Positions 16,974-62,454 are shown, counted from the stretch's first letter. The stretch: DNA of 64,000 nucleotides from a virus (IMGVR_UViG_3300027864_000205:9929-73928); one strand, 5' to 3'. Program-made: numbers and translations. The notes: a model not told the origin generated them from the letters alone.

Positions 16974-18779
16974 TTAGAACCCTCCTTCTCTTATAAGCCT
17001 TGTGATTTCTGCCGATAGCGGAGATAAAGTTACATCACTTATTGCTTCTGCAAAAGCTTCCCTATAAGCAAATCCGAGCCCCTTCTTGTTGGCTACCGCC
17101 GAAACATAGTCAGAAATATTGAGCCACTCGTCGGCACTCATTCCGAGATTTGATAATGCTTTTTTAACAATCCTTGCCGACACATCGCCACTCTTTAACG
17201 ACTGAAACGCAGCGACTCTATCTAACATGCCATTCAGGTCGGTGGCGGTGAAGTCTACTCCGCGCCCATTGAAAGTTTCAACGAAGTCAATTGCATGCGA
17301 CACTTCATGTCGTAGAATCCCTGCGACTCCATTTTTTGAAGTCCAGTAGCCGCTATTTGTGTACTTGTTGACCATTTCAGAGATAGAGTTTAGGTCCTGC
17401 ATGTTCGCGACATTTAGTTTTAAGCTCGTGGTTATGTTTCCTTTGTCGCTTCTCACCGCAAATTCGGCAATCATATCACCAGGTTCATTGACAGCCACTA
17501 TTTTCTGCACTGAGCCCTTCAGTTGCGGAAACTCTTGATAAAGCCCCTCTAGGCTGTTGCCGACTGCATTTAACACTTCATCAGACAACCCTGTTACCGC
17601 TACTTTTTGAGTGCCTATAGTCTCCTTTAACCGCGCTATTTCTTCGCGCCTACTTGTGAACGGTTTATTTACTTCAATTATACCATCGGCTATGCTCCCT
17701 TGCAAGCCATTACCACCAATTCCAACCCCTGCGAAGCTTGCAGACGCTCGTGCGTCCATCACATTATCTTGAATCACGCCGACTCGCGCCATGTTAGTCT
17801 GCTGCAACTCACGCTCCCATGCACCATCGTCTTCGTCTATGGCTTGTTGTTGTAACGCCTGTCTCTCTTCGAGAGATAATCCGAGTATGTTTTCGTTCAC
17901 AACGGCTTGCATACAGCAATGACAGTTTATTCGTTCTTCCGGGGGAAGTATAGGGTCGCGAGGGAACATTGGGCTGAAGCCGTCAAGCGAGAAAGGTTCA
18001 TTAACCGGCACACGTTGTCCGCTGATAGCGACATGGTTCTCGCGGGGGTCGTTCATGTGACCGCCTGTGTGTTTCCACCCCTTTTCCTCGACTGCCGGAC
18101 TTTGTACATAAGATTCCTGCTGAGCTATGGAGTGCGCTGTGAGCATTTCGGTCACGGCAACACTTCTCGCCCTGTGATATTCGCTGCGTATACCGCCATC
18201 CATGAGTACCCTTGTAAACTCTGCCACGCTATGCCCTTGCGAGAGGCTTGTTGTAAGCGCCCTTTGTATCTGCCTATGCGAAGTGAGTTGCATTATTCCG
18301 GCAAGTTCCTCACTCCATTCCTCCGCCCACGCCGCCGTGCGCTTCGATATACGGTCAGCAGTATTGCCTGAGCCGAGACTTTTTGCTATGGTCGCTTCCG
18401 CAAGTTCGGGGTCTGTTTGAGCAATATAGTCTATGGTAAGTTCACAAACCATCTTCTCAAACTCATCATAGAATATTTTGGTAAGCTTCTCCGCTGTGTC
18501 ATCGGATGCGCGGATACCCTGCCAAACAAAGTCATTGAAGAACAGGAGGCCATCCGAAGCATTAAGTGCCTCTATTACTCTATTCGTAAATTCTTTCAAG
18601 CAACTTGCGACTTTTTCCTCACAAGCCGATATTTCTCCCACCGTGCCTTCGGCATCGGCAAAGCCGGCCTCGTCCAACGCCTCTACAAGATTGCTGTCTT
18701 CTTTAGCTATGTATTTGTCGATTGCCTCTATAAGTGGCTTGCAGTTGACTTTGCTCCAATCAATAACTTTCTTCGACAT
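16974..18779 (-). CDS. MuF (SPP1 gp7-like) minor head protein with C-terminal zinc-metallopeptidase-like extension
   Basis: MuF motifs KGWKHTG..PRENH..ISGQRV...EPF, PRDP.LPPEERINCHC; extension with HEVSH and EAFAE. Confidence 0.85.
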   Translation of the reverse strand: MSKKVIDWSKVNCKPLIEAIDKYIAKEDSNLVEALDEAGFADAEGTVGEISACEEKVASCLKEFTNRVIEALNASDGLLFFNDFVWQGIRASDDTAEKLTKIFYDEFEKMVCELTIDYIAQTDPELAEATIAKSLGSGNTADRISKRTAAWAEEWSEELAGIMQLTSHRQIQRALTTSLSQGHSVAEFTRVLMDGGIRSEYHRARSVAVTEMLTAHSIAQQESYVQSPAVEEKGWKHTGGHMNDPRENHVAISGQRVPVNEPFSLDGFSPMFPRDPILPPEERINCHCCMQAVVNENILGLSLEERQALQQQAIDEDDGAWERELQQTNMARVGVIQDNVMDARASASFAGVGIGGNGLQGSIADGIIEVNKPFTSRREEIARLKETIGTQKVAVTGLSDEVLNAVGNSLEGLYQEFPQLKGSVQKIVAVNEPGDMIAEFAVRSDKGNITTSLKLNVANMQDLNSISEMVNKYTNSGYWTSKNGVAGILRHEVSHAIDFVETFNGRGVDFTATDLNGMLDRVAAFQSLKSGDVSARIVKKALSNLGMSADEWLNISDYVSAVANKKGLGFAYREAFAEAISDVTLSPLSAEITRLIREGGF

Positions 18780-20370
18780 CTGCATCCCCCTTGCCTTGCA
18801 TATCACCGACATCGAGTAACAGTGAGCGAACTTCCTTCATAATGGCAGCTATATCTCTATCGCCACTCTTGGTCGCTTTCTCTATCTGTGCTGCAAGCTC
18901 CTCGGTTACAGACTCTGTAGTATCTAACCCTTTAAGCTTACCTGCAATTGCCACGGATGAGCGCAGATACGCCACAGGGATTTCGCCCCATTCGCCGGGG
19001 TAAGCTTCCGCTGTTTCTCCGAGGGCATTGTAAGCTATCTCTTTTGCTTTGTTAGGAGACAAGCCTCCGGCACGTTCGCAGATAGAGAGTATTGCACTCA
19101 GGTCTTCAGGGTTTGTCACGTTAGGTGACTTGAAGTACGCCTCAACATACTTGAAATTATAGTCTTTGAGCAACTTATGATTTATTACCCAAGCGAGACT
19201 GGCCCTCTCCGGTTGGAATACCTGCTCTTCCGTAATTTCCATAGCTGTCTGCGCCGTCGCACGGTTGAAGTCGGTCGTATATCCGACATAGAGGTCGGGG
19301 AGCAAAAATGCCGATTGAACCTTTTTGCGGTTATTATTCAGATAGTCCTGAAAGAGTTCGTCTTTCTGCAATATCTCTGCAAGCGGCACGGTCTGTATTT
19401 CGGGAGGTTTTTCTTGGTCGAGTAATGTAGTGGAATCTGCAGATTCAGCCTCCAGCACCATAAATGAATGCTGCCCGGATTCACCCTTGATATCGTTCAT
19501 GTATGCTTTAAGTTTTTCGAAGCTACCATCTGACAGTTTGCCGTTCTTAATGAGTATGAGTAGCGGAGTGTGCCGCCCTTCCCCGAAGTAGCGGTTATTG
19601 AGTTCTTCTGCTTTGCGAGCGCCGTCAACTCCGAGTATTTGACCTATCCAGCGAATCTCTCCGTAAATCTCTGTGCCTATTGCGAACTCCATTATCTCAT
19701 TCGCTTGATCCTCGGGCGCAAGCGCGTCAACGTACTTGCCAGTGGTTTTATTCATGATGCGCGGGTCGCCCATCTCCTTAAAGTATACAGTCTTATTTCC
19801 GGTGGTCTGACGGTACTTGCAGAATTTACGCTTCCTTGTCTCAGTTTGCCCATTGATGTTGTAATCAACATCAACATAAGGCTCAAGAGGCGCAGTTTTG
19901 CGGATACTCTTTGTATTGATGATAAATTCTATACCGTCAACTTCCCCGCCGACGTTTCGGAGTGCTTCGATGTATGATATGCCGTAAGTCTCACGCGCCT
20001 CAATAACGTCCTCAAACACTTCTTTGGTGTCTTTATCCATGTTGAGCAGGTTTATTATATTTTCGGCCTTGGTGTATTCGTTTTTCATTTCAGGCGTTTC
20101 TGTTGAGTAGTCCATCTTGTATCTTACGCCGATACCAAACCCTGCAATATTGTATTTGTACGCTCGTATGCACTGAGGGAGAATTGACGAATGCTTCACA
20201 TGAATCGAAAGCCCTTCGAATTCAAGCGTAGGCTCTACCCACCCAAAAGCAAATGCGTCTGCCTGTTCCTTTACCTGTGCCGACGTAGCTCCTTTTTCAA
20301 CTGGTTGTTCGGCCGGGGAATCAGCTTTGACTATATGCACATTGTATGTTTTCAAGCTTTTATCAGACAT
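18760..20370 (-). CDS. Portal protein (PBSX/XkdE family)
   Basis: SSILPQCIRAYKYNIAGFG, GARKAEELN.RYF..GRHTP, DFNRATAQTA motifs. Confidence 0.92.
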   Translation of the reverse strand: MSDKSLKTYNVHIVKADSPAEQPVEKGATSAQVKEQADAFAFGWVEPTLEFEGLSIHVKHSSILPQCIRAYKYNIAGFGIGVRYKMDYSTETPEMKNEYTKAENIINLLNMDKDTKEVFEDVIEARETYGISYIEALRNVGGEVDGIEFIINTKSIRKTAPLEPYVDVDYNINGQTETRKRKFCKYRQTTGNKTVYFKEMGDPRIMNKTTGKYVDALAPEDQANEIMEFAIGTEIYGEIRWIGQILGVDGARKAEELNNRYFGEGRHTPLLILIKNGKLSDGSFEKLKAYMNDIKGESGQHSFMVLEAESADSTTLLDQEKPPEIQTVPLAEILQKDELFQDYLNNNRKKVQSAFLLPDLYVGYTTDFNRATAQTAMEITEEQVFQPERASLAWVINHKLLKDYNFKYVEAYFKSPNVTNPEDLSAILSICERAGGLSPNKAKEIAYNALGETAEAYPGEWGEIPVAYLRSSVAIAGKLKGLDTTESVTEELAAQIEKATKSGDRDIAAIMKEVRSLLLDVGDMQGKGDADVEESY

Positions 20371-20394
20371 GCCTTAATCTCCTTGCGTTAATAT

Positions 20395-21840
20395 CTATCT
20401 CTTATCTTTTGCCGCCGGTTTATCGTCCTTCAGGTTTACCGGGAGGCAGCAGAGAAGCAGACAATCAGCCTCATCGGGTGATGGGAGTCCACGCTCTTTC
20501 ATCGCCCTTTTGCTTTCCACCACTATCTTGTTGCGTCCGTTAAGCTCATATTTCCGTGACGAAAGCTGGGCAATAAGATCTGAATCATTTGGCAATATTA
20601 AATCCACCGGTTTCTTTTTGCCCTCGTCATCAATCTGCGACAGACGGTCACGCACGAACGCCATCATTACCGTTGTGGAGTCGTGGTAGTAGGGGTGCTT
20701 ACTATAGACTTTCCCAAAGTGGACGGGCAATACTTCAAGCCACCAGTAACGCTTGGGGTCGCTTGACTTTATCTGGACAAGACGGTCAGTTACGCCACCA
20801 CCTAAGCCGCCATCGTCTATCTTGACAGGAATCTTACGAGCGAACTTGTGCCTGTGCCTCAGTCGCTCGCCGAGCAATACGATTTCAGCAGCAGTCTTCA
20901 TCAGGTTCTGCCCTCGTATTTTTTTATGAAATTTCATATGCTCATTGACTGTGTACCCGATTACCGTCTTGTCATCGCCGTACCGTGCAACGTCACACCC
21001 GATATGTATGCTATGCACTGGCACACCCTCGCCTTGCTCTGACTCGGGATCTGGTATATCCGTATACATGACTGAGTTCTCTATGAGCGAGAGAGGTATG
21101 AATACATCATCTTCTTGCAGCGGGAAGTCTCCGCGTACCCTTACTCTGACGAAATTGCTTTCCTCTCCGTATTTCCTGATATTTGCCTCGATGTTCTCTT
21201 TGTTTGTGCGCGAGCTTTTCAAAGCGTTTACCGTATGGCATTTATAGAGGTCACGGTCTGATGTATGGCTGTCATAAAATGTGCCTGCGGTCTTTGTAGG
21301 GTTGCCGCACATCAAGAGCTTGTTGTTATCGCCGGATAGGGTGCCAAGTATAGCTTCCATGATAGGCTCAGCCACGCCGGAAGCTTCGTCCACTATAAAG
21401 AGCATATTGTCTTCGTGGAATCCTTGCATATTTTCTGGCTTGGTTGCAGTCCTCGCTACTGCGAACCACCGCTTCTCCATGCCTACCATGTATATATATG
21501 TTTTAGTCCATTTCAGAATAGCAGAGAGCAACGGACTTCGTGCTTGCCATTTTGCGACCTCGGCCCACAACACGTCATGCAACTGTTGGCGGGTTGGTGC
21601 CGTTGCTACCACGCGGGGAAAGGGGAAGCATGTTAGAAACCAGAGAAGTACCGCTGCTTCAAGTCCTGTTTTTCCGACACCTTGACCACTCTTTACCGAA
21701 ACCCTTTTTGATACTGCGAGATCCATTGCCGCAGCAGCTTGCCAATCGTCAGGCTCAAAGGTGAGTACTTCTCGAAAGAACAGGACAGGGTCTTTTTGGT
21801 ACATCTTCTGCCTCTGCTTGAAAAAATCATTTCTATTCAT
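20395..21840 (-). CDS. terL: Terminase large subunit
   Basis: Walker A SGQGVGKT, Walker B FIVDEASG, nuclease GCDVARYGDD, SPDEAD. Confidence 0.95.
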   Translation of the reverse strand: MNRNDFFKQRQKMYQKDPVLFFREVLTFEPDDWQAAAAMDLAVSKRVSVKSGQGVGKTGLEAAVLLWFLTCFPFPRVVATAPTRQQLHDVLWAEVAKWQARSPLLSAILKWTKTYIYMVGMEKRWFAVARTATKPENMQGFHEDNMLFIVDEASGVAEPIMEAILGTLSGDNNKLLMCGNPTKTAGTFYDSHTSDRDLYKCHTVNALKSSRTNKENIEANIRKYGEESNFVRVRVRGDFPLQEDDVFIPLSLIENSVMYTDIPDPESEQGEGVPVHSIHIGCDVARYGDDKTVIGYTVNEHMKFHKKIRGQNLMKTAAEIVLLGERLRHRHKFARKIPVKIDDGGLGGGVTDRLVQIKSSDPKRYWWLEVLPVHFGKVYSKHPYYHDSTTVMMAFVRDRLSQIDDEGKKKPVDLILPNDSDLIAQLSSRKYELNGRNKIVVESKRAMKERGLPSPDEADCLLLCCLPVNLKDDKPAAKDKR

Positions 21841-22696
21841 CGCCAGCACCGATGAGGGACTGTATCCACTCGACTGCTATAATGTTTTGCGTAGATTCGC
21901 TCTGACTTTGCTTGAGCCTATTCAAGGATTCGATACATTTTCGCTTTTCAGACTGAACTCTCGAAAGTTCTGCATGGGCGCGTAGCAGCAAGTCGGTGCT
22001 ATCCCGTGTGATTGTATTTACACTATATGTATGCCCCGGCAGACGCTTATCAGCTTCAACTTTTTCTGTTATTCTCTGCTGGTACAATTCTTTCTCTGCA
22101 TCATTTGCGAACTCGCGAAGTGTCTCTCCCCTAATAACTTGGTCAATCATAAGTCCTCGCGAGACGTTACCGAAGTTTTGGATTTGTTGTATTTTGTCTA
22201 ACAGCCAGCGTTCCCTTATTGTGAGGATTGCAATTTGTTCGTTCAGTATACTCTCTTCATCGGTAAGCACTGCAACCATCCCATTAAACAGTTTAAGGTC
22301 ATGCTCGGACAATATGTCCGAGTACGGATTAGGGCGAGAGTATATGCCGTGCGTTTCTGCAAGAGTATTGCCTGGTTGCAAGTTAGGCTTGCCCCCTTTA
22401 TTGCCTACTGCGTTTTTATTGCCTAGTGGCGCTCCGCGCTTCTTGGCTGGCGTTCCCTCTTGTGGTGCGCTCCCTTTCGAAGTGGAGCGTTCCACTTGTT
22501 TTTTTTTCGACGATTTTGTGGGGCGTGCGCTGCCGCTCGACTTTTTGCCGTCCCAGTTGTCGAGAGACTTCCACTTGCGAACTTTGGCTGCGGGAACTCC
22601 TAGATGCGCAGCAATGTCCACAAGCTTGACCGAGCCACCCTTATCATGGTACATCTGCTCGGCTTTTATCCTTTCTTCACTCTTAGGACTTGGCAT
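21833..22696 (-). CDS. terS: Terminase small subunit (HTH N-terminus)
   Basis: LVDIAAHLGV...VRKWKSLDNW HTH; GAPLGNKNAVG; THGIYS; upstream of terL. Confidence 0.85.
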   Translation of the reverse strand: MPSPKSEERIKAEQMYHDKGGSVKLVDIAAHLGVPAAKVRKWKSLDNWDGKKSSGSARPTKSSKKKQVERSTSKGSAPQEGTPAKKRGAPLGNKNAVGNKGGKPNLQPGNTLAETHGIYSRPNPYSDILSEHDLKLFNGMVAVLTDEESILNEQIAILTIRERWLLDKIQQIQNFGNVSRGLMIDQVIRGETLREFANDAEKELYQQRITEKVEADKRLPGHTYSVNTITRDSTDLLLRAHAELSRVQSEKRKCIESLNRLKQSQSESTQNIIAVEWIQSLIGAGDE

Positions 22697-37717: not shown

Positions 37718-38343
37718 CCTCGCACCTCCGATTTATCTATCCGTTCGAGTGTATAAGCCCAAACCCAATCATTGCGTTCCCATGATTCTTTGCCGTATAC
37801 GCTAATCCACAAATCCTCAAACCACTCTTTAGGAAAGTTTGTAGGGCAACTATCATCGCAGCACCCGCAATTAGAAAGCCCCACACATCTATAAGGGAAT
37901 CCTTCTAGGCGAATATCCGAATCACTTATATCCTGCACCCTTTCAACTTTCAACGCAGTCACTCTCAGGAATATCCGCGCCACTTCTTTGGGCATGTGGA
38001 TACTGGGTCGCCACATACCAACATATTCAATAGGCATTGTCTTTTCACACGCATAATCCGCTTTATACGCATAATGCGGTGGCGCGACACAGACGTTTTG
38101 CCATGCCTCTCTTACATAGAGGATGTCACCGACTTGGCAGGGTGGCTTTATCTTATCGCTTATACCGCTTTCACCATTATCAAAAAGCACTTTCCCTATG
38201 TCTCTTTTATCTCCTGTTGTGCTTGTGCAAATTCCTAAAGCTCTTGTGCCTATCGGCTGAGGCTTAATCGGTCTACGTGTCATCGTCTTTGTGCCGTCAA
38301 GTATCGCACGAACCATTTCCGTGTTGAATAGTATGGGTTTCAT
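37714..38343 (-). CDS. ASCH/PUA-like phage protein
   Basis: MKPILFNTEMVRAILDGTKTMTRR, GDILYVREAW, WRPSIHMPKE..RIFL.V. Confidence 0.8.
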   Translation of the reverse strand: MKPILFNTEMVRAILDGTKTMTRRPIKPQPIGTRALGICTSTTGDKRDIGKVLFDNGESGISDKIKPPCQVGDILYVREAWQNVCVAPPHYAYKADYACEKTMPIEYVGMWRPSIHMPKEVARIFLRVTALKVERVQDISDSDIRLEGFPYRCVGLSNCGCCDDSCPTNFPKEWFEDLWISVYGKESWERNDWVWAYTLERIDKSEVRG

Positions 38344-38666
38344 TGCTCTTCCGCTCCTTTGATTGTTGAATATACATAATCGGCGACTTGCTCGCAAAAA
38401 TTGTCTCTGTTTTCGTCCATATGCTCACAAGGCTCGTCAGCGTAATCGATTTCACTGTATCTGTATATGTCGCAATCTGGACGTTTACAACCTTTGCAAA
38501 TTTCAAGTTCTTTTATCTCGGGTGTCTTGGCTGCAATTGAATAGTAATCTGCTTCATCAACTTCTGCAAAGCGCGAATCGGTACATATGCAAAACCCGAA
38601 CCCATTTCCGCAATAATCAATAACTTCACATTCGCCGCAATGTTGTTCTAATTTTCCTATTTTCAT
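38340..38666 (-). CDS. Cys-rich hypothetical protein
   Basis: CGECEVIDYC...CIC...CKGC. Confidence 0.7.
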   Translation of the reverse strand: MKIGKLEQHCGECEVIDYCGNGFGFCICTDSRFAEVDEADYYSIAAKTPEIKELEICKGCKRPDCDIYRYSEIDYADEPCEHMDENRDNFCEQVADYVYSTIKGAEEQ

Positions 38667-38675
38667 ACTGCATCC

Positions 38676-39044
38676 TCATTTGCCTTCGGTTCGACCTGGG
38701 GCTTCATAAAATCCTGCCATACAGTTCGGACATTTGTAGTCACCTACGGGATGGTGTTCGGGCAGCACTGGCTTTTTAGTGTTTTTGCCTCTCAATACCT
38801 CAATTTCAGCTATTAGTTCCGGTAATATATTGCGAACTTCGACAATGAGTTCGAAATTCGGATTAAATGCGTGTCCGAACTGGTCAGGGATGCTGTCGCC
38901 GGGATGTTCGCGCAGCTCACTCGAAATAAGAAACGCGCCTTCCCTTTCATGGTATGCGTGAATTTCAGGATGCATGCCATCATAGCTCCATGGTCCCGGA
39001 GTCGCAGTCTCGTGTAATCTTTGTAGTTTTTCTAAGTTAATCAT
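38676..39044 (-). CDS. Ead/Ea22-like protein
   Basis: ATPGPW...N.ELIVEVRNILPELIAE. Confidence 0.65.
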   Translation of the reverse strand: MINLEKLQRLHETATPGPWSYDGMHPEIHAYHEREGAFLISSELREHPGDSIPDQFGHAFNPNFELIVEVRNILPELIAEIEVLRGKNTKKPVLPEHHPVGDYKCPNCMAGFYEAPGRTEGK

Positions 39045-39126
39045 TTCAGGTGCCTCATCTTTCTCTCTACTAAATCATTCGTTATTTTTGCGAAGTAACT
39101 CTTTAAGCATAATTTTTCAACAACAC

Positions 39127-40944
39127 CTATCCCGCCATTTCTTCCATTAGTTTTGACATTGTCACTATCTTCTTTCCACACAGCTCTGGAAGGTTTGCTC
39201 TGACAATTGCCTCTGAAAATGGCGGCGGTACCGCATTCCCACAACGGGCAACTTGTGCCGCTTTACTTATCGGTGAGCCCAATGCACCAGCATCTATCAC
39301 ATAATCAGACGGAAAAACCTGAGCATTAAAAAGCTCTCTAGGTGTGAGCATTCGCAAGCCTATGTCGGTTATTGCATACTGCTGACCGCGTATAGTAACA
39401 AGCCCTAAGCGGTCTTTTGATGTGATGGTATGTGTCGGGGCGGTTATATCTTGCGCATCATCACCGCCGTAATATTTAATCAACAACGCTCTAACTTCGC
39501 CGAAATGCCCTGCACTTGTGAGTATCGTATTGAGTGGTTCTCTGAGGTCTTGACCGTTGCTGTTATTGCGAAACAATGTGAGTTGCGAAGTGATTAGTGC
39601 GTTATGGTCGATTGCAGTTACTGTGTTTAGCGGGTCTGTGACACTGTTTCCTTTTCCATCATAACCGCCACTATAGTATTTACTAAGAAAAGACATCACC
39701 ACGCCGTAGCGGTTCTCGGTGTCCACGGTCAGTAATGGTTTCTCTATTGACTGACCTCTGGTTTCGTCCTTGCCTTGCTCGTCGTGATACTGAATGAGTG
39801 TCGGTGTGACAAGTATATTGCGACCACCTGTTGTTACTGTCGGCAAAGGCTCGTTTGCACCAGTAGGCACGTTATCACTCATGTTTGGTACGATGCATGG
39901 AGTAACGCTTGCTTCAATCACACATTGCTCTGCTTTGGAAACGATTGTTCTGACAGGCTCATCGACGGGATACGACCTGTCGCTGGTAAAGCCAGTATGT
40001 CCTATTGCAGTCATCGTCGGAACAACAATCCCAAGCCCATTTTTTCCAGTCATTGTGTTAGTAGGCTCACCTATGCTATGACCTCTAAAATCATCACCGC
40101 TTCTGTTCACCTGCACAACAAAAGGCTCAGGATTGTCGAGTACAAATTTCTTTATCCCTCGCGCAATGCGCCTAAGTGTTTTTTCTGCAAGAGGTCTTAC
40201 AGCTCTCACACCATACTGCTGTTGAATTTCCGCAGAGCTTGCGAATATGGAAGGACACGGAAGATTCCAGTCAATTATCTCTGCGGCTGTGCGCCACGGT
40301 TTCAGCTTGCCGCTTTTAACGGCTTCGCTGTCCGGGGCACCGTGCGTAGGTCGGGGCCAGACTATAGGCGCATCGTCACACCGAGCAATCAAGAAAAGTC
40401 TCTTGCGTATCGTTGGTGCCCCATAGTCGCATGCCCTAAGCTCTTCCCACTCCACTTTGTAACCGTGATGTTTTAGTGCATTCACAAAGCTGTGGAATGT
40501 ATGCCCTTTCTTTTCTTTGACAGGGTGTCCTGCTTTGTCAAGCGGACCCCAATCCTTGAATTCTTCTACATTTTCCATAGCAATCATTCTCGGCCGGACA
40601 GTTGCCGCCCATCGCACAGCTACCCATGCAAGACCCCTAATCTCTTTTTTGCGCGGCTTTCCACCACGCGCCTTGCTGTGGTGCGTGCAGTCAGGCGAGA
40701 GCCATACAAGTGCGACTCGTCGCCCTGCGGTCACTTGCCGAGGGTCAACTTCCCATACATCCTCACAATAATGCTTTGTGTATGGGTGGTTGCGCATGTG
40801 CATAGTTATTGAATCAGGGTCGTGGTTAATCGCTATATCCACAGGTCGCCCGGTGGCAAGTTCAATGCCTGTAGATGCGCCTCCTCCTCCTGCGAAATTA
40901 TCAACTATTAACTCATCGAATATTGAGGTTTGTTTTTTCGTCAT
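39127..40944 (-). CDS. C5-cytosine DNA methyltransferase
   Basis: DNFAGGGGAS, WLSPDC.HHS, MENVEEF, YGAPTIRKRLF, CGNAVPP. Confidence 0.93.
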   Translation of the reverse strand: MTKKQTSIFDELIVDNFAGGGGASTGIELATGRPVDIAINHDPDSITMHMRNHPYTKHYCEDVWEVDPRQVTAGRRVALVWLSPDCTHHSKARGGKPRKKEIRGLAWVAVRWAATVRPRMIAMENVEEFKDWGPLDKAGHPVKEKKGHTFHSFVNALKHHGYKVEWEELRACDYGAPTIRKRLFLIARCDDAPIVWPRPTHGAPDSEAVKSGKLKPWRTAAEIIDWNLPCPSIFASSAEIQQQYGVRAVRPLAEKTLRRIARGIKKFVLDNPEPFVVQVNRSGDDFRGHSIGEPTNTMTGKNGLGIVVPTMTAIGHTGFTSDRSYPVDEPVRTIVSKAEQCVIEASVTPCIVPNMSDNVPTGANEPLPTVTTGGRNILVTPTLIQYHDEQGKDETRGQSIEKPLLTVDTENRYGVVMSFLSKYYSGGYDGKGNSVTDPLNTVTAIDHNALITSQLTLFRNNSNGQDLREPLNTILTSAGHFGEVRALLIKYYGGDDAQDITAPTHTITSKDRLGLVTIRGQQYAITDIGLRMLTPRELFNAQVFPSDYVIDAGALGSPISKAAQVARCGNAVPPPFSEAIVRANLPELCGKKIVTMSKLMEEMAG

Positions 40945-40988
40945 ACCTATCTTTCCTCCATTTTTCAAAAATTGGACAAGGCTCATCT

Positions 40989-41627
40989 TTATACGTATCC
41001 TCTTGTTTTGCCTTGTTCGTGCCAGTAGTCGTTGTTCGGTTGGTTTCCTGTTTGGTGTATTACACCTCTAAGAGGGTCCTCAACTCGCACTTCGATTATT
41101 GTTTTTCCTAATTCCTTAAATATCTGGTCACGAATTTCATCGAGGGTTAGGTATTGGCTAAATCCCTCAAATCCAGAAGCATACTTACTTGTATTCCATC
41201 TTAGTTTTGCTTCTGAATATCGGTCGCGGGTAAGTCCTGTAACTATTAAAAGGGTTGATGTGGGATCATCACACCATATGGTGAGCTTTCCGTATTCCGC
41301 AGGATGGGGATACTCCTGATCTTCTGCGGGTCGTATGTCATTTTCGATTGTTGGGTCGTCACCCCAATCGTCGAGACATTCTTGACGGGTCAGAAAGTAG
41401 TTGACCCCTATGTTGTTCCATGAACTCCCGCCCTGACTGGGTATGCTGTTAAATTTGAAGCCGCCTCTCTCGGGGTGTTGCTCTATTGATAGAGGTTTCG
41501 GTGACCAATATACTTTTCCGTGATGAGCTGTTCTATCCATTTTCCATAGCACAGTCCCGATTGGGTATTGTTCCCGCTTTTGTTTTTGGTACTCAGCGTA
41601 TGTTTGCCCTTTTCTTGCCATCTTCAC
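40989..41627 (-). CDS. Hypothetical protein
   Basis: 212-aa ORF in early operon. Confidence 0.7.
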   Translation of the reverse strand: MKMARKGQTYAEYQKQKREQYPIGTVLWKMDRTAHHGKVYWSPKPLSIEQHPERGGFKFNSIPSQGGSSWNNIGVNYFLTRQECLDDWGDDPTIENDIRPAEDQEYPHPAEYGKLTIWCDDPTSTLLIVTGLTRDRYSEAKLRWNTSKYASGFEGFSQYLTLDEIRDQIFKELGKTIIEVRVEDPLRGVIHQTGNQPNNDYWHEQGKTRGYV

Positions 41628-41887
41628 CAGTCTGCCTCCTCTTCTGCCGCGCGCTTTAGTTTGTCATCAATGTCTTTGTTGTAAACACCGTTACAGTTCA
41701 TAGAGATTTTGCATGGACAGGCATGTTCCCAGCAACTATGCCAATATCCACAACCATACCTAGCGTTTATCTCATCAAAGAGTTCTTGTGTCATGCTTTT
41801 TCCATCTCCTTTCTCAAATTGAACTCCCACCTTGCTATAATTTTTCCACAATCGTTGCAACGTATCGGCTCTTCCATCACCAATCAC
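41624..41887 (-). CDS. Hypothetical Cys-containing protein
   Basis: 87-aa coupled ORF. Confidence 0.6.
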   Translation of the reverse strand: MIGDGRADTLQRLWKNYSKVGVQFEKGDGKSMTQELFDEINARYGCGYWHSCWEHACPCKISMNCNGVYNKDIDDKLKRAAEEEADW

Positions 41888-42104
41888 CTCCGCTCATTTG
41901 CGCAATATTAGACTGTACAACTACGTTAAACGGCTGCGGGTCGCCATCTGGGCTATGAGATAGACCTTTCATAAGGCAAATTGCATCTTGCGGAACAAAC
42001 AGATAAGCTTCAGGTTCATACTCGGTTATTTCATGCATCAGCTTACATAGCTCGTCAGTTAACCTCACGAACTTATTTATATGTTTTTGTTTAATCTTAT
42101 TCAT
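41877..42104 (-). CDS. Hypothetical protein
   Basis: GAGGT RBS; 75 aa. Confidence 0.7.
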   Translation of the reverse strand: MNKIKQKHINKFVRLTDELCKLMHEITEYEPEAYLFVPQDAICLMKGLSHSPDGDPQPFNVVVQSNIAQMSGGDW

Positions 42105-42198
42105 GTTACTACCTCGTATTTGCTTTCAAATTTCATTTTGTATCCCCAGCACGATTAGCATACCTGCTACTATTGGGTCGTTTGGCTCGAAGTCGTTG

Positions 42199-42597
42199 TT
42201 ATTCATCATGAGATACCGCGTGCCATGGATAGCAGCCACCACAATAACCGTTCCCACCAACTTCCTTGCCCTCTCCATCAAATATGGGAACGTAGCCACC
42301 ATCATCAGAATCGTACAACTCTTCGCATTCATGACACTTTTCATATGTATCAGGGAACACACCCAAGTGCTCCTGAAGATAGTATATGATGCTGAATGCA
42401 GTGCCGGCATCAAGCCTTGGATGATGCGCTAAAATCAGGCAATGTTCACCTTTATCGCCTTGCAGCATTTTGTAAAACGATTCCACTGCCTCTAAAGCTA
42501 CTTTTCCATTCTCAAGCTGGCTTTCACATAAATGCTTATTTTTGCACTTGCTACAGCCGTTATGCACATATCTTTCCTTAAATTCAATCTTAGCCAT
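42199..42597 (-). CDS. Hypothetical zinc-binding protein
   Basis: Probable start MAKIEF; CSKC, CHEC, CGGC. Confidence 0.65.
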   Translation of the reverse strand: MAKIEFKERYVHNGCSKCKNKHLCESQLENGKVALEAVESFYKMLQGDKGEHCLILAHHPRLDAGTAFSIIYYLQEHLGVFPDTYEKCHECEELYDSDDGGYVPIFDGEGKEVGGNGYCGGCYPWHAVSHDE

Positions 42598-42602
42598 TTG
42601 CG

Positions 42603-43343
42603 CTACCCTTTCCCTTCGTGGTTTTCCATTTCCTTTCTCAAATCGTCTTTGATATAGTAGTTTCGTCTGTGTTTTTTGCAAAGCTCGACACATTTATGAC
42701 CGAACTCGCCCCAGTTTATATCTGACGGGTGGTAGTTCATTTTGCCTATGCGGTAGAGGTCGATGAAATCATAACATTTTATAGAATTATATATTCCTGT
42801 CTCATCTATAACAGGCTCGCAAGACACCCATGTTTTTATTCTGCAATACTTAGCCAAAGCTAAGGTTGTCATTCTGTCATAATTGTCAGAAGCGTATGGC
42901 TCGCAATCGTCTTGATACCCAACGTCATCTAAACCGCCTGTATATGTCACCCCAAACCAATCGTTGCTGTCAAGCAAATCATGGTCACGCGCCGCAATTT
43001 CGCTACCCTTTGTAAGTATCTGCACATGATTTCCGCTGCCTTTTATGAGCTTGATTATCTCTCGTGTTACGGTGGTGTCGTATCCAACGGGGTATGGGTC
43101 GCACACGAACGAAAGGTGAATGAGCTTGCCTGTTATGCCCTCACGCTCTATTTGTTTTGCTGTAGCCTCAATTATGCTTTTTCGCGGCTCTACGTGGCTG
43201 TGAAACTCTTCACGGCTCTTGCGGAGTACAGAGGGTGCAAAACAGTATGTGCATGAATGTGGGCAACCAGTGTAGATGTTCAATGCAAGTGCATCCGGTG
43301 AATATTCCAAGGCTTTGCCTTTTGGTTTATATATTGGTTTCAT
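42603..43343 (-). CDS. Radical SAM protein (SPL-like family)
   Basis: NIYTGCPHSCTYCFA (CxxxCxxC), CDPYP, QILTKG, WVSCEPV. Confidence 0.88.
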   Translation of the reverse strand: MKPIYKPKGKALEYSPDALALNIYTGCPHSCTYCFAPSVLRKSREEFHSHVEPRKSIIEATAKQIEREGITGKLIHLSFVCDPYPVGYDTTVTREIIKLIKGSGNHVQILTKGSEIAARDHDLLDSNDWFGVTYTGGLDDVGYQDDCEPYASDNYDRMTTLALAKYCRIKTWVSCEPVIDETGIYNSIKCYDFIDLYRIGKMNYHPSDINWGEFGHKCVELCKKHRRNYYIKDDLRKEMENHEGKG

Positions 43344-43421
43344 TGTGAACCCTCCAATAATTTAGGACTGTTCGATGTCCTTAAAATAGTTTTGATAATT
43401 GTTGGGGCTGTTGTTTTGCTC

Positions 43422-44486
43422 TCATCGACTCGCCTCCGGGTGCAGCCTTACAGGGAGTATCATTGATGTTAGCTGGTTGTCCTTCATAACAATTGGAGTC
43501 GTTGCTGTGTTGTACGTTATTGTCACTATTTCAGACTTGTGCGCTTTTAGCGAATCACGCAAATAGCGGATATTAAAACCGATGCGAAGGCTTTCATCTA
43601 TGTCACCATCAACTTCTACTTCTTCCTTGAATTGTGCAGTAGCGGATTCTAAGGAAACAACCATTTTGCCGCCGGAAAAACTTATTGTAACCGGCGATTT
43701 TGTGAGGTCGTCCATGCAGATCTGCGCACGCTCAACGCAGTCGAGCATTGTTTTTCTGTCAACAGATACGATATTGCCTTCACAAGGCACGGCATTTTGA
43801 TAATTAAAGAACTCACCTTGTAACAAAATAGTGTATATGGCGTAATCCTCAGTTTTAAATACCATATTTTTGTCGGTATAGTTAATCTCTATTTCTCCCT
43901 CAATGCCCAACTTTAACAGCTTTTCGAGTGTTTCTTTTGGCACAACAAAAGAGAACTCATCATCAAAATCAACCTTGCTCCACGCAAGACGGAATCCATC
44001 AAGTGCTACAACATTGAGTTCGCCGCCAGTGGCCTCAAGCAGAACCCCTGTAGCTGTCGGTCTTGTTTCATTCGTTGCCACTGCATACATGACCGATGAC
44101 ACGAGGTCTTGAAGAGTGCTGATGCTGATTTTGCTCCCGTTGCTTTCGCCTGTCGGCTCGGCCGGTATAGAGAAGTTTTTAGCATCATCACTTCTGAATG
44201 TACTTTCTATCCCATCGGCAAATATCTCCACTGCTTCACCCTTGGTTGTGATTTCAATGGTGGTTTCAGGCAGTGCGGCGATAAAGTCCATTGCTTTTGG
44301 CATCAGGATTATCGGGTTCTTTAGTTCTGCTGATATTTTTGCTGTTATCCCTATTTTGAGATTATGAGCTGTGATTTGGTCGCCTGCCACCAGTACGCCT
44401 TGCTGTGCGGGGGGCAGATTCTTTTGTCCGGTGGCACTTCTGACCTTTTTTAGTTTCTCTGCAAATTCCCCTTTTTTGATTAACAT
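43422..44486 (-). CDS. dnaN: DNA polymerase III beta sliding clamp homolog
   Basis: 354 aa; RPTATGVLL, VALDGFRLA, GFNIRYL.D.L, ILPVRL. Confidence 0.88.
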   Translation of the reverse strand: MLIKKGEFAEKLKKVRSATGQKNLPPAQQGVLVAGDQITAHNLKIGITAKISAELKNPIILMPKAMDFIAALPETTIEITTKGEAVEIFADGIESTFRSDDAKNFSIPAEPTGESNGSKISISTLQDLVSSVMYAVATNETRPTATGVLLEATGGELNVVALDGFRLAWSKVDFDDEFSFVVPKETLEKLLKLGIEGEIEINYTDKNMVFKTEDYAIYTILLQGEFFNYQNAVPCEGNIVSVDRKTMLDCVERAQICMDDLTKSPVTISFSGGKMVVSLESATAQFKEEVEVDGDIDESLRIGFNIRYLRDSLKAHKSEIVTITYNTATTPIVMKDNQLTSMILPVRLHPEASR

Positions 44487-58507: not shown

Positions 58508-58531
58508 GATAACTCCTCCTCTAAATAATGA

Positions 58532-59273: not shown

Positions 59274-59303
59274 AGAAATATCGCCCCCTTTCCTTCGATA
59301 ATG

Positions 59304-59332
59304 TTGACAGGTGCAAGGCTGAGTTGTATAAT
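59304..59332 (+). promoter_or_regulatory. Consensus sigma-A promoter, antisense to the first early gene
   Basis: TTGACA (59304-09), 17 nt, TATAAT (59327-32). Confidence 0.75.
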
Positions 59333-59340
59333 GGTGTGGC

Positions 59341-59553
59341 TTATACCATCATGTAAACGTACTCGTCAACATCGGACGCTTGGCCGTAGTATTTTGCAAA
59401 GAGTTCGCCGTTTACGAAGATATCAAACGCTTTAGCGAATAGCGTGCCCGTCGGTACTATTCTCACTTTTGAGCCCTTTACCGCTCCGCTTTTTGTGAGG
59501 ATATCGCGCACATTCTCTTGGTCTTGCCTTGTCACTTGAAGCTTGTTTATCAT
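59341..59553 (-). CDS. First early-operon hypothetical protein
   Basis: AAAAGGAGA RBS; 70 aa; downstream of operator-promoter. Confidence 0.7.
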   Translation of the reverse strand: MINKLQVTRQDQENVRDILTKSGAVKGSKVRIVPTGTLFAKAFDIFVNGELFAKYYGQASDVDEYVYMMV

Positions 59554-59607
59554 GATGGTTTCTCCTTTTACCCTGCGTTTGTACTTGTCTTAATACTTAG
59601 CGTATGT

Positions 59608-59663
59608 TTATTATAATCCCTAATTTGAGGGAAGTCAATAACCAATCTCCCTAATTTGAGGAA
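59608..59663 (-). promoter_or_regulatory. Early lytic promoter with two operators
   Basis: Minus-strand TTGACT, 17 nt, TATAAT; spacer holds TCCCT-N6-AGGGA (59617-32); second operator TCCCTAATTTGAGGAA at 59648-63. Confidence 0.85.
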
Positions 59664-59733
59664 ATTTACCTATTGCACAAAAATAACACCCTGTTTTTGT
59701 ACAAGGTGCATGATAAAAGAAAGCGGGTTCGAT

Positions 59734-60210
59734 ATGGGTAATTCAATAGAAGAGCGAATTAAAGAGTTTGAAGAAAGCTTTAAGAAGATAGTAGAGGAAA
59801 GACAGCAGGCTGTAGAGGAGTCTGTGGCGGTATTCAAGACTCTCTATGAGGGTGTACTGCCGATCATTAAGGTCATAAAAAGGAACAAAATTATTTTTAT
59901 GCACCCTGACATAAAGGATGTGACAGTGCATGGCCCGATAATCGCAAAGGAACAAAATTATCCGTCAAACATTTACATTTATGATGGGAACTTTGCCGTG
60001 CGTGTTAACCCTGCTAAAGATGAAATCGAAACAGATTCAAAGATTTTCATTGAGAAAATTGCACATAATTTAGATTGGGATTTTGCATTCAAGGGACTTT
60101 ACACACTGAATTCATACTTAGATAATGTCATTGATTATGAAAGGGACACTATCGACAAAATCAATGATATTACGCTAGGTGTGAAATTAAGCATGGAGCG
60201 TAACTTATAG
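59734..60210 (+). CDS. AT-rich accessory hypothetical protein
   Basis: Probable start MGNSIEE; N-terminal coiled coil; visibly lower GC than flanks. Confidence 0.7.
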   Translation: MGNSIEERIKEFEESFKKIVEERQQAVEESVAVFKTLYEGVLPIIKVIKRNKIIFMHPDIKDVTVHGPIIAKEQNYPSNIYIYDGNFAVRVNPAKDEIETDSKIFIEKIAHNLDWDFAFKGLYTLNSYLDNVIDYERDTIDKINDITLGVKLSMERNL

Positions 60211-60219
60211 TCCTAGTGC

Positions 60220-60441
60220 TTATGTATCGCCCATCCTTGGAGCCCCACCATAATCTGGTTTAGGCTTATTTGCAGCGTACTTCTCTTTCAATTTTTGTTT
60301 TTCGTCATCTGCAAGCTTATTGACCAGGCTGACGATTTCTGGATCTTCAACTATTCTGCGCAACGCGCTTACGTCCTCACGAATAAGTTTTAGTTCTTGA
60401 AGTATCTCCCTAGCAATTCCAGTATAACTCATAGCAATCAC
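60220..60441 (-). CDS. Small coiled-coil hypothetical protein
   Basis: AAGGGTGA RBS; directly downstream of the second operator-promoter copy. Confidence 0.65.
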   Translation of the reverse strand: MIAMSYTGIAREILQELKLIREDVSALRRIVEDPEIVSLVNKLADDEKQKLKEKYAANKPKPDYGGAPRMGDT

Positions 60442-60462
60442 CCTTTCTGATAAGTAGTAAAG

Positions 60463-60494
60463 TTATTATAATCCCTAATTTGAGGGAAGTCAAT
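60463..60494 (-). promoter_or_regulatory. Second identical copy of the 32-bp operator-promoter
   Basis: ttattataatccctaatttgagggaagtcaat identical to 59608-59639. Confidence 0.88.
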
Positions 60495-60533
60495 GTTTGA
60501 GCATTCTTTTTTGAAAAATGAGGTGCGCGCTGT

Positions 60534-60986
60534 ATGGTATTTTTTGAAAGACTTGAATCCTTGCGCCTGAAGCGCGAACTATCTCGCAACAAGCTTTGTA
60601 GCGAACTAGGTGTCGGGAAAAACTCTATCGCTAACTGGGAGCAACGCGGCAACATTCCTGATGGAGAGGTTCTTACTAGGATTGCCACTCTTTTTGAAGT
60701 AACTACTGACTACCTCCTTGGTCGCACCGACGACCCGCATATCGTAATCTATCCGGCAGATCCTGATAAGGTAAGAGAGCATGAAGAAGAAATGCGGCAG
60801 AATAGGGAAGCATTTTATAGCAAGCTTGAATCGGAAATAGACAGGGCGGCCGCCAAGCGAAGACCGCCAGAACCCGCAAATGTATCAGTGGCAAACCTCA
60901 TTGACCTCGTACAAGATTTAAGCGAAGATGAAGCTTCTAAGGTTGCGGAGTACGCACAACTACTGAAGCGTGTGCGAAATCAATAG
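60534..60986 (+). CDS. Prophage repressor, XRE-family HTH
   Basis: LSRNKLCSELGVGKNSIANWE.RG..P...L..IA..FEVTTDYLLGRTD; divergent from early genes. Confidence 0.9.
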   Translation: MVFFERLESLRLKRELSRNKLCSELGVGKNSIANWEQRGNIPDGEVLTRIATLFEVTTDYLLGRTDDPHIVIYPADPDKVREHEEEMRQNREAFYSKLESEIDRAAAKRRPPEPANVSVANLIDLVQDLSEDEASKVAEYAQLLKRVRNQ

Positions 60987-61004
60987 GCTTTTACGAAATA
61001 AATA

Positions 61005-61033
61005 TTGACAACTCGGGGTGTGCGTGGTAGTAT
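61005..61033 (+). promoter_or_regulatory. Antitoxin RNA promoter
   Basis: TTGACA, 17 nt, TGgTAGTAT. Confidence 0.75.
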
Positions 61034-61038
61034 GTGAG

Positions 61039-61140
61039 TGTAGGTAACTACAACCGCTGTAGACAAGCGGTAACAAGAGGTCGAGAGCATATTATCCAAA
61101 AGCGAAAGCCCCGAGGTCAGCAACACCTCGGGGCTTTCTT
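61039..61140 (+). ncRNA. Type I antitoxin RNA (par RNAII-like)
   Basis: No ORF; between promoter and terminator; carries AAGAGGTC and ATTATCC, repeated over the toxin start region. Confidence 0.65.
61104..61138. terminator. Bidirectional terminator shared by toxin and antitoxin
   Basis: 14-bp perfect stem gaaagccccgaggt / acctcggggctttc. Confidence 0.88.
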
Positions 61141-61143
61141 GGG

Positions 61144-61233
61144 CTAGTCGTCGCGTTCGTCGCTATCCAACCACTTGCAGATACTATAGACAATCATACC
61201 TGCCACGATAGCGATTAAGAGGTCACATAACAC
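61144..61233 (-). CDS. Type I toxin, Fst/Ldr-like, 29 aa
   Basis: Not in ORF track; AGGAGG RBS + GTG; MLCDLLIAIVAGMIVYSICKWLDSDERDD. Confidence 0.8.
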   Translation of the reverse strand: MLCDLLIAIVAGMIVYSICKWLDSDERDD

Positions 61234-61290
61234 ATTATCCCTCCTCTCCGCTGCAAGATTGCCAGCGTTGGGAGTGGCGACAACTCAACT

Positions 61291-61319
61291 ATAATATTAG
61301 GTCATAGCTGTTTTGTCAA
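61291..61319 (-). promoter_or_regulatory. Toxin promoter
   Basis: Minus-strand TTGACA, 17 nt, TATTAT. Confidence 0.75.
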
Positions 61320-61353
61320 TGGGGTGACACTGAAAGGGTCACGGACAAAGCCA

Positions 61354-61509
61354 CTACGGTTCGGGGGTGCGGTTGGCTCGCAATGCTGAAACGAATTCGG
61401 TTATTTCGTCTGCTTCTTCGGAAGTCAGCGTGAGCAGCAATTCTTCTAACTCGATTAAGTATTGCGGCTTTTCGTGAGTGCTGTGTTTAGGCGGTACGTT
61501 GTCTTGCAT
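61354..61509 (-). CDS. 51-aa protein resembling the repressor C-terminal helices
   Basis: Not in ORF track; purine-rich RBS; MQDNVPPKHSTHEKPQYLIELEELLLTLTSEEADEITEFVSALRANRTPEP. Confidence 0.6.
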   Translation of the reverse strand: MQDNVPPKHSTHEKPQYLIELEELLLTLTSEEADEITEFVSALRANRTPEP

Positions 61510-61602
61510 GATAATAACCCTTCTTTCTTGTGTCAGGCGTCTTAGCGTCTAAGAATAATTAACCCACAGAGTGGTAGCTTACAAATAGGAGGAATTTTTA
61601 GT

Positions 61603-61947
61603 ATGAGGAAATCAATAAGTTTGATAGTTTTGGCGATTATCGTTTTGTCTGTGGTGGCGTGCGGACCGACAAGTCGGCTCAACGAAACGAATACCCTTGT
61701 AGCCACGAGAGTCATCAATGCTGTGGATGCGTACTTGGATGGAGGCTCGCTCAATTCTGTCAGAACCGTTGTTGAACGAGAGATGGGCAATGTTGACGAT
61801 AGTTGCGATACTGCGTTCCTTTTGTCTGCACGGCTGATAACTTTGAATGCGGAGTTGTTTCATTCCTCGGTGCGCGGAGAAGATGTAGAAGCGATAAGGG
61901 GATTTAGGAACGGTGTCGCTGAGCTTGCCGGCATACGCAACAGATAG
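61603..61947 (+). CDS. Lipoprotein, candidate superinfection exclusion protein
   Basis: AGGAGG RBS; signal peptide and lipobox VVAC; lysogeny module. Confidence 0.75.
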   Translation: MRKSISLIVLAIIVLSVVACGPTSRLNETNTLVATRVINAVDAYLDGGSLNSVRTVVEREMGNVDDSCDTAFLLSARLITLNAELFHSSVRGEDVEAIRGFRNGVAELAGIRNR

Positions 61948-62454
61948 ATGAGAAGTGACTTTGAAATTGATGCTGCCTTGGGTATGTCGCGAAAAGAGAG
62001 GCAGGCGTTACAGCAACAAGCCATAGACGAAGACGATGGTGCGTGGGAGCGCGAATTGCGGCAGGCAAACATGACAAGAGGCGGGGTCGATAATTCTGCC
62101 TCAGAAGGTCGAACGTGGAAAGAAGTAAATGCCATGCGGTCAAGGAGGAACGAAGGGTACAAAATGCTCGAAGAAATGAATGAGTGTTTGGCGAAGCTTG
62201 AACGTCATTACGAGCAAGACAATGAAATTCGCATATTGAGAATTGCTGCAGAGGTGGTAGAAATAGAGGGGTTGTCTCCCCATCAGACATCATTGGCAAT
62301 AAAAAGACTGGCTGATTACTATTATTCGGAAGATAACTGGCTTATGGCTCTCGACCATTATGAGATAGGTTATCGGCTGAATCCGAAATTGCCGGTGAAG
62401 CGAAGGATAGAGGAGTTGTCGTCAGAAGCTAAAACTCAATACAAACCCATATAA
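61948..62454 (+). CDS. Protein with MuF-junction N-terminal segment and TPR-like C-terminus
   Basis: ERQALQQQAIDEDDGAWEREL shared with MuF; LADYYY...ALDHYEIGYRLNP. Confidence 0.7.
   Translation: MRSDFEIDAALGMSRKERQALQQQAIDEDDGAWERELRQANMTRGGVDNSASEGRTWKEVNAMRSRRNEGYKMLEEMNECLAKLERHYEQDNEIRILRIAAEVVEIEGLSPHQTSLAIKRLADYYYSEDNWLMALDHYEIGYRLNPKLPVKRRIEELSSEAKTQYKPI

Follow-up and report, generated by a model that had tools for sequence, protein, structure and literature searches.

An accessory lysogeny gene of a temperate phage carries an inverted copy of the MuF junction helix 44 kb from the head gene

Polymorphic toxins built on an N-terminal MuF domain have been described from temperate phages (Jamet et al. 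2017, PMC5576092; Apk2 and Bxa, PMC11699363). The MuF domain is encoded after the portal gene, the C-termini vary among relatives, and a short open reading frame (ORF) of fewer than 150 aa, a candidate immunity gene, is expected downstream (PMC5576092). In SPP1 the portal holds the MuF protein, gp7, in the procapsid interior, and gp7 assists infection at its onset (PMC6316719); toxins fused to gp7-like proteins have been proposed to be injected (PMC6316719; PMC5576092). Here we analyse a 64-kb stretch of viral DNA (IMGVR_UViG_3300027864_000205), bases 9929-73928 of a 73.9-kb IMG/VR virus record, which is called the window below and in whose coordinates all positions are given. It encodes a MuF protein of this kind and, 44 kb away on the opposite strand, a second protein, ORF168, which begins with a copy of the MuF junction helix and continues into a domain resembling tetratricopeptide repeats (TPR). 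The reading we prefer, and hold at about even chances, is that ORF168 is an accessory lysogeny gene with a recombined copy of the MuF helix, and that the resulting repeat is the footprint of an exchange and not a switch for the MuF C-terminus.

Two kinds of described system are among the closest to such an arrangement. Orphan C-terminal toxin/immunity cassettes of contact-dependent inhibition (CDI) and Rhs loci were reportedly described by Poole and colleagues in 2011; they lie just downstream of the main gene and in the same orientation, have an immunity gene behind them, and are brought in frame by deletion. A preliminary description of the present DNA had compared ORF168 to these cassettes, and part of that likeness holds: a junction fragment stands before another C-terminal domain, C-termini change at this junction, and the ORF168 module is found elsewhere fused to a full-length delivery domain (in P0006, and partially in P0004). 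In other respects ORF168 differs: it lies 44 kb off and inverted, as that description also noted, it carries a TPR-like, non-toxin domain, it has a start codon of its own, and the gene behind it is the integrase gene. It thus departs from the cassettes in place and orientation and in having neither toxin domain nor immunity gene, and for this reason we do not class it as one of them. In the G segment of Mu, with Gin, and the C segment of P1, with Cin, a serine invertase acts on short crossover sites at either end of a segment, a few kb long, that lies beside a constant part. The window shares with this tail-fibre switching an alternative C-terminal coding segment that is inverted relative to a constant N-terminal part; unlike those systems, the window record has no resolvase or invertase, and an inversion here would take in 44 kb and disrupt the late operon.

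The shared segment forms the only inverted repeat of at least 30 nt that a repeat finder reports in the 64-kb window. Minus-strand positions 17868-17790 and plus-strand positions 61995-62073 are identical at 71/79 nt, and the repeat finder extends the arms to 17776-17869 (minus strand, in MuF) and 61994-62087 (plus strand, in ORF168), 94 nt at 86% identity (81/94). The copies are 44,124 nt apart and 14% diverged, and their longest exact run is 29 nt. Both encode ERQALQQQAIDEDDGAWEREL in frame, and five of the eight mismatches are synonymous changes within a 21-codon core; the 71/79 alignment and the synonymous count agree exactly with those of the preliminary description. Upstream of the core a weaker similarity continues for about six codons (LGLSLE in MuF, LGMSRK in ORF168), and downstream it continues for nine (QQTNMARVG in MuF, RQANMTRGG in ORF168), beyond which the two sequences are at background. 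Over this hinge, as we call the segment together with its flanks, 26/30 residues are identical, and residues 11-47 of ORF168 correspond to residues 310-346 of MuF. Chance similarity is ruled out, with an expectation of ~1e-23 for such a pair in 64 kb. An artefact of assembly is likewise rejected: identity between the copies runs for no more than 29 bases, which is shorter than the k that assemblers use, five independent contigs have the identical ORF168, and three have the identical MuF.

The MuF gene (16974..18812, minus strand) encodes a minor head protein of 612 aa (P0001) made up of a core, the hinge helix and an extension of ~265 aa that contains an HEVSH motif. PF04233 matches residues 181-300 (48.1 bits against a cut-off of 29.6), phrog_2468 (head morphogenesis) spans residues 26-335 and reaches the end of the profile (E = 2e-67), and phrog_21401 ('pilot protein') spans residues 402-609. 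In an AlphaFold2 (AF2) model the core, residues 21-344, is predicted confidently and ends in a single helix at residues 314-344, encoded by the minus-strand repeat arm; the predicted local distance difference test (pLDDT) score lies below 50 after residue 349. When 80 MuF loci from IMG/VR were compared with the window MuF, the alignments stopped at residue 346-351. Among the 79 loci with a complete 3' end, which were used for C-terminus counts, 53 stop 38-43 residues after LGLS and end in ...AKAGIEEE or ...ARAGINEEDYT, and the other 26 run on into extensions of 82-273 residues that belong to at least nine unrelated clusters. The extension of the window MuF matches no extension cluster of these 26 relatives. 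In a larger protein collection, MuF relatives 40-55% identical over the core bear PF14436 (EndoU), PF15644, PF18451, PF15542 or PF06414 (Zeta toxin), and the toxin-type domains found behind MuF in relatives are EndoU, CdiA-type, Ntox50, glutamine-deamidase and Zeta. Homology thus ends near residue 346, where the C-termini of relatives diverge and the predicted helix closes the core. This identifies the shared segment as the helix that ends the MuF core and as the point of junction in a MuF polymorphic-toxin family. The preliminary description had placed the segment correctly in taking it for the hinge in front of the MuF extension.

In its other features the window MuF compares well with the described toxins. 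It has the N-terminal MuF domain, it belongs to the head-morphogenesis module of a temperate phage, with the portal protein gene (18760..20370, minus strand; PF04860, phrog_12) directly upstream, and a 54-aa acidic ORF (16808..16972, minus strand) starts 2 nt after its stop codon, in the position of the proposed immunity genes of MuF toxins. Unlike theirs, its extension fits no Pfam toxin family: a profile search with residues 346-612 gave no significant Pfam family, and what the extension shows, at pLDDT below 50, is the HEVSH motif and the phrog_21401 match, in the place where relatives bear toxin domains. A sequence search of the PDB with MuF returned no match. The nearest MuF relative is 55% identical, and the relatives with named hosts come from Oscillospiraceae and Lachnospiraceae-type organisms.

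ORF168 (P0002; 61948..62454, plus strand) is a protein of 168 aa in which the hinge copy (residues 17-46) is followed by a TPR-like domain (residues 57-168; 62116..62454) that ends in the family motif NPKLPVKRRIEEL. Its AF2 model has a mean pLDDT of 91.8, with hinge helices at residues 15-28 and 32-44, a linker, and then five helices at residues 57-86, 90-103, 111-127, 131-144 and 151-164. The top rows of a Foldseek/VIA search are three-repeat TPR domains, with E ~0.1 and Z scores of 9-11, a range common for helical repeats, and matches in the ESM Atlas have template modelling (TM) scores of ~0.45. Pfam TPR models stay under their cut-offs, TPR_2 scoring 13.2 bits against 27 in ORF168 and 18-21 bits in family members. 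The predicted fold of residues 57-168 is like that of Hop/Sti1 TPR2A, SGT and kinesin light chain TPRs; at an identity of 10-17%, a Foldseek E of ~0.1 and Pfam scores under cut-off this is a resemblance of fold, which says nothing on ligand. 'TPR-like', the label already used in the preliminary description, is a fair one for the modelled domain.

ORF168 itself matches no entry in Pfam, PHROG or PADLOC. A word-indexed search of proteins of similar length returned only ORF168, one of longer proteins returned only an unrelated TPR protein, and a tblastn search of phages returned MuF hinges only. Searched exhaustively with phmmer, 1.8 billion representatives yielded 37 matches, with homologues 30-46% identical, in three groups: MuF proteins that match only residues 8-54, which is the hinge, proteins that match the C-terminal 100 residues, and a few that match both. 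Given these homologues, the pLDDT of 91.8 and the translational coupling to the preceding gene, orf114, ORF168 is a real gene. Among the features conserved in this small TPR-like family are the motifs S-x-YQ-x-S and K-x-L-[AG]-D and, at the end, N-x-K-L-P-V-K-[KR]-[KR]-I, and its members are built in several ways. The hinge stands directly before the TPR-like domain in ORF168 and P0015, and in P0003 as a half hinge; a middle part containing a SAP domain separates the two in P0007, P0008 and P0011; and full or partial MuF proteins carry both in P0006 and P0004. An unrelated N-terminal domain precedes the TPR-like domain in P0013 and in the G040 and G037 copies, where the hinge is present, and in the G047 copy and P0022, where it is absent. 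The TPR-like domain stands alone in P0005 and P0009, and is followed by a further helical region in P0014, P0021 and others. The hinge is thus optional in the family, as P0005, P0009 and the G047 copy lack it.

Several family members lie in genomic positions like that of ORF168. P0005 lies between a CI-type repressor gene and an integrase gene in the IMG/VR provirus G001 (L011 / L012), and P0021 (L119) lies directly after the repressor gene and two genes before the integrase gene, in a phage with SbcCD-like early genes like those of the window phage. The closest relative of ORF168, P0003 (L009; 43% identity), is encoded directly before an ORF that starts MAETQKKKKKRGPRRFNGTGSVYK, as the window integrase starts MDTEKKKKRRPRRFNGTGAVWK, and P0003 is therefore the positional orthologue of ORF168. 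The genes of P0015 and of the P0013 type follow the lysis genes and face the early region (L118, L093-L095). The TPR-like family is thus of the accessory, moron type and occupies the variable region that separates the lysis genes from those of lysogeny control, and ORF168 is an ordinary member in an ordinary place. The provirus G001, which combines the hinge-less P0005 with a MuF::EndoU protein (PF14436) lacking the LGLSLEER hinge, offers a contrast case for any interaction between TPR-like proteins and MuF.

The age of the helix copy in ORF168 was approached by comparing its thirty codons, codon for codon, with the resident MuF and with 54 distinct other MuF hinges. Against its own MuF the ORF168 hinge is identical at 77/90 nt and 26/30 aa, with the same codon at 17/24 identical residues; against any of the 54 others identity reaches at most 61/90 nt and 20/30 aa, with the same codon at 2-11 of 10-19 identical residues. 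The two window copies also depart alike from the consensus, with ELQQ and ELRQ and a shared NM-x-R in place of the consensus ELDAKN[KR]A[KR]. That the two proteins share only a conserved motif is ruled out by the other MuF hinges, which are far less similar in nucleotides and codons. P0003, whose TPR part is only 43% identical to ORF168, bears a consensus half-hinge, WEKELDAKNRARAGID, whereas 87% of the amino acids in the ORF168 hinge agree with the resident MuF; this hinge is accordingly of much later date than the gene that carries it. These comparisons suggest that it was replaced or patched from the MuF gene of this phage lineage, the direction and the mechanism being what we infer from them. 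A single ancient displacement of the 3' end of a MuF::TPR gene is ruled out as the sole cause, the hinge being younger than the split between ORF168 and P0003.

Within the 21-codon core, five of ~11 synonymous sites differ (pS 0.44) and no non-synonymous ones do (Fisher p = 7e-5); over all thirty codons the synonymous divergence (dS) is 0.84 and the non-synonymous divergence (dN) is 0.058. Because of the synonymous divergence in the core, the putative exchange is not very recent. ORF168 is altered at three positions that are invariant in MuF, L314R, E315K and A342T, and these lie at the edges of the copy only.

The preliminary description had suggested a search for the TPR-like part fused to MuF, and such proteins were found, joined through the hinge. 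The Logan contig ERR14045487_17680 (L008) encodes P0006, in which PF04233 is followed by the hinge and the TPR-like domain. L008 is collinear with positions 1428-12216 of G040 (92%) and then with positions 38304-44000 (95-97%), with an overlap of 43 nt in the hinge, and the join lies at the 5' edge of the hinge homology block. G040 and G037 each carry the hinge twice in direct orientation, once in MuF and once in the P0013-type gene, at a distance of 26 kb and with 83-85% identity over 46-48 nt. Collapse by an assembler at k = 31 is unlikely for L008, because no stretch close to 31 nt is identical between the parental hinges. L008 retains terminase, portal and MuF::TPR beside the early genes and is without all capsid, tail and lysis genes (G040:C1:12216-38304). 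Recombination at the hinge makes MuF::TPR in this one traceable case, and L008 is a deletion derivative, not a phage with new MuF cargo. A defective prophage is one possibility for it, a satellite-like derivative another.

A second, diverged protein in which half of MuF is joined through the hinge to a TPR-like domain, P0004, is encoded on a 1.5-kb contig. Another chimera, P0140 (742 aa, on a 4-kb Logan contig), has ~590 residues of an SbcCD-like nuclease/ATPase (PF00149, PF13476) followed by half a MuF core, the C-terminal one, with its hinge, and as a second case it shows that chimeric joins containing MuF are common in these data. P0140 is a further large deletion or rearrangement involving a MuF gene.

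Four other explanations of the repeat were weighed. The preliminary description had seen in it an operating swap cassette, with ORF168 as an orphan C-terminal module and recombination at the hinge giving MuF an in-frame TPR-like C-terminus, in the manner of the orphan C-terminal modules of CDI and Rhs loci. The hinge is indeed the polymorphic junction of MuF relatives, as in orphan cassettes a piece of this conserved junction stands in front of another C-terminal domain, P0006 is a natural MuF::hinge::TPR protein from a G040-like phage joined at the hinge, with assembler collapse improbable, and P0004 is another. We nevertheless regard the swap as very unlikely here. The join in L008 cost 26 kb, including all head, tail and lysis genes, and left a defective product, and in the window the repeats are inverted. 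A crossover between them would invert 44 kb and split the late operon, as had been foreseen and as the gene order bears out: terminase, portal and MuF would be separated from protease, capsid and tail, so that terminase-portal-MuF(1-345)::TPR would come to lie beside the integrase gene, and a 46-nt ORF168 leader would stand in front of the protease, capsid and tail genes. Gene conversion, put forward as a route to a new MuF C-terminus, lacks the means for a clean replacement, because a second homology block would be needed and the window has a single one, 14% diverged and with no exact run above 29 nt. No serine invertase or resolvase was found, PF00239 being unmatched in the 73.9-kb record while controls were matched. 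ORF168 further has a start codon of its own, coupled to orf114, it is followed by the integrase gene and not by an immunity-like gene, and its TPR-like domain occurs in other phages without the hinge. With the nearest MuF relative only 55% identical, no recombinant alleles are visible, and three assemblies show one and the same orientation. Little credence is also given to the idea that phage mosaicism left the hinge copy behind passively, with no function in ORF168. Phage genomes are mosaics, and P0140 shows that joins of this sort are frequent in these data, but a core of 21 codons without an amino-acid change, at ~44% of synonymous sites differing, argues against an inert relic, as does the recurrence of hinge and TPR-like domain in divergent members of the family (P0015, P0003, P0013 type).

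The remaining two explanations give the helix a partner. Superinfection-exclusion lipoproteins occur in the lysogeny modules of phages of Gram-positive bacteria, Ltp of TP-J34 being an example, and orf114 resembles them as a small lipoprotein gene between repressor and integrase genes on the lysogenic strand, here coupled to ORF168; it differs in having no detectable relation to any such family in Pfam, PHROG or PADLOC. To our knowledge no TPR or MuF-tail partner of such lipoproteins has been described. On this background ORF168 might be a neutraliser, its TPR-like domain gripping the acidic, tryptophan-containing tail of MuF (DDGAWEREL) and, if produced in the lysogen, capturing MuF that superinfecting phages inject, of any toxin type, as superinfection exclusion or general immunity, with its own hinge copy as a lid or oligomerisation element. 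We judge this unlikely. The company of a lipoprotein gene of the exclusion kind in the lysogeny module speaks for it, as do a fold like that of three-repeat TPRs which bind short acidic peptides (Hop TPR2A with EEVD; kinesin light chain with W-acidic peptides), the acidic tails of short MuF proteins (e.g. ...AGIEEE), the co-occurrence of a hinge-like WE motif on either side of the TPR-like domain in family members, and the presence of the hinge-less P0005 in a phage with an EndoU-toxin MuF. Binding, however, is proposed here by analogy from fold and context, and the fold scores (Z 9-11) are of a size common for helical repeats. When the MuF hinge was aligned with the C-terminal WE motif of P0021-type proteins, hhalign picked the region with a probability of 3.7%, which is not significant. 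The MuF of G001 lacks the hinge though that provirus has a TPR gene, and PADLOC gave no match for ORF168. Alternatively the hinge might serve as a cargo tag, the helix pairing with MuF or the portal so that ORF168, P0007, P0008, P0011 and P0015 ride non-covalently into the capsid and are injected with the DNA, as a split form of MuF::effector. Several unrelated architectures do begin within ~10 residues of the hinge, the ORF168 hinge matches the resident MuF, and portal-bound gp7 goes to the procapsid interior, a path by which gp7-like toxin fusions have been proposed to be delivered (PMC6316719; PMC5576092). We nonetheless find this highly doubtful: ORF168 lies on the repressor/integrase strand and outside the late operon, family members without the hinge exist, the hinge copies of G040 and G037 do not match the resident MuF, and portal binding by this part of MuF is an assumption.

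According to the reading we prefer, ORF168 would be a separately translated accessory gene of the prophage lysogeny module, one of a TPR-like family that temperate phages of Clostridia-type hosts appear to carry between the lysis genes and the repressor/integrase genes. Its first ~45 residues would copy the alpha-helix that closes the MuF core, at which most relatives end and the toxins change their C-terminal domain. Non-reciprocal recombination would have carried the 3' region of the MuF gene of this lineage into a pre-existing, diverged hinge in the ancestor of ORF168, the copied hinge would since have been kept at the protein level, and the 94-nt inverted repeat would be the footprint of this exchange. 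Tentatively, the copied helix may let the TPR-like protein engage a partner of the MuF tail in the lysogen (the portal, the capsid interior or the incoming MuF) as a mimic or decoy; this seems to us possible, albeit short of probable. The shared peptide may equally be an interaction tag, which was the alternative raised in the preliminary description. A wider proposal, which we consider decidedly speculative, is that TPR-like lysogeny proteins recognise or imitate the terminal helix of MuF, so intercepting incoming MuF toxins and MuF-dependent steps of any toxin type, and that the bait helix is kept current by recombination with the resident MuF. If true, prophages would possess a layer of immunity or exclusion that is independent of toxin type.

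Several observations weigh against the preferred reading. The low dN/dS would arise from purifying selection within ORF168 or, just as well, from a recent donation by the MuF gene of a sister phage. The hinge does not track the resident MuF as a rule of the family, since this was not found in G040 and G037, where the resident MuF ranks 47 and 21 of 96 and the closest hinge is that of another MuF lineage. The role as mimic or decoy is drawn by analogy, ORF168 is known here from its sequence and a predicted structure, and the predicted template modelling score (pTM) of that structure is 0.66. The existence of MuF::TPR proteins (P0006, P0004) also leaves room for a cargo role of the TPR-like domain on MuF.

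MuF toxins are widespread phage-delivered effectors at an early stage of characterisation, in which the exchange of C-termini and the handling of incoming copies by lysogens are undescribed. The text of PMC5576092 nowhere uses the words 'orphan', 'recombination', 'linker' or 'TPR', and the MuF literature that we searched is without the junction helix as an exchange point, its recurrence on a TPR-like lysogeny/moron family, or deletion from hinge to hinge. The locus defines the MuF exchange point as a single conserved helix and identifies a lysogeny-module protein family that carries this helix, and recombination at the helix happens in nature, at a cost of 26 kb in the one traced case. Should the helix serve in binding or mimicry, it would give a handle on the loading of MuF into capsids and its release, and would hint at a new kind of prophage-encoded protection; should it not, the locus would be a clean example of mosaicism leaving junction fragments on unrelated genes.

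The minus strand of the window carries, in order, the early genes, terminase (20395-21849), portal, MuF, the 54-aa ORF, prohead protease, capsid, tail sheath and tape-measure genes. On the plus strand at the right end, the lysogeny module begins with a CI-type helix-turn-helix repressor gene (60534..60986; PF01381, PF07022, phrog_8) and continues with orf114 (61603..61947), ORF168 and a gene for a tyrosine integrase of 367 aa as called (62529..63665; PF00589), whose start may be at 62562. A tRNA-Ala gene (63820..63894, minus strand; found with ARAGORN) lies just past the integrase gene and is probably the attachment site of the phage, as we infer from this position. The orf114 gene is predicted to encode a lipoprotein whose signal peptide ends in the lipobox VVAC, and it has no match in Pfam, PHROG or PADLOC. 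Its ATG is preceded at 10 nt by AGGAGG, a strong ribosome-binding site, and its stop codon abuts the start codon of ORF168 (TAGATG). The five contigs with identical ORF168 come from four sources and have the same arrangement, and two of them run on into host genes. A 120-kb ENA contig has MuF and ORF168 at the spacing and in the orientation of the window, and the arrangement of the two is the same across three assemblies.

A 51-aa ORF on the minus strand (61354-61509), between the repressor gene and orf114, gave no meaningful BLASTP alignment with the repressor (E = 2.3), a comparison that a short helical motif could escape. Two strong hairpins, at 61104-61138 after the repressor gene and at 63766-63809 between the integrase and tRNA-Ala genes, are possible bidirectional terminators, and orf114, ORF168 and the integrase gene may therefore form a transcription unit apart from the repressor. 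On the other side of the repressor gene, an exact 32-nt direct repeat (59608-59639 and 60463-60494, 855 nt apart) contains a near-consensus promoter on the minus strand (TTGACT-17-TATAAT), and its copies flank an ORF at 59656-60210 together with small minus-strand ORFs. In the structural region, an exact 63-nt direct repeat (13838-13900 and 14075-14137, at a spacing of 237 nt) lies within a minus-strand ORF (13707-14219) and represents an internal duplication in a head-proximal structural gene.

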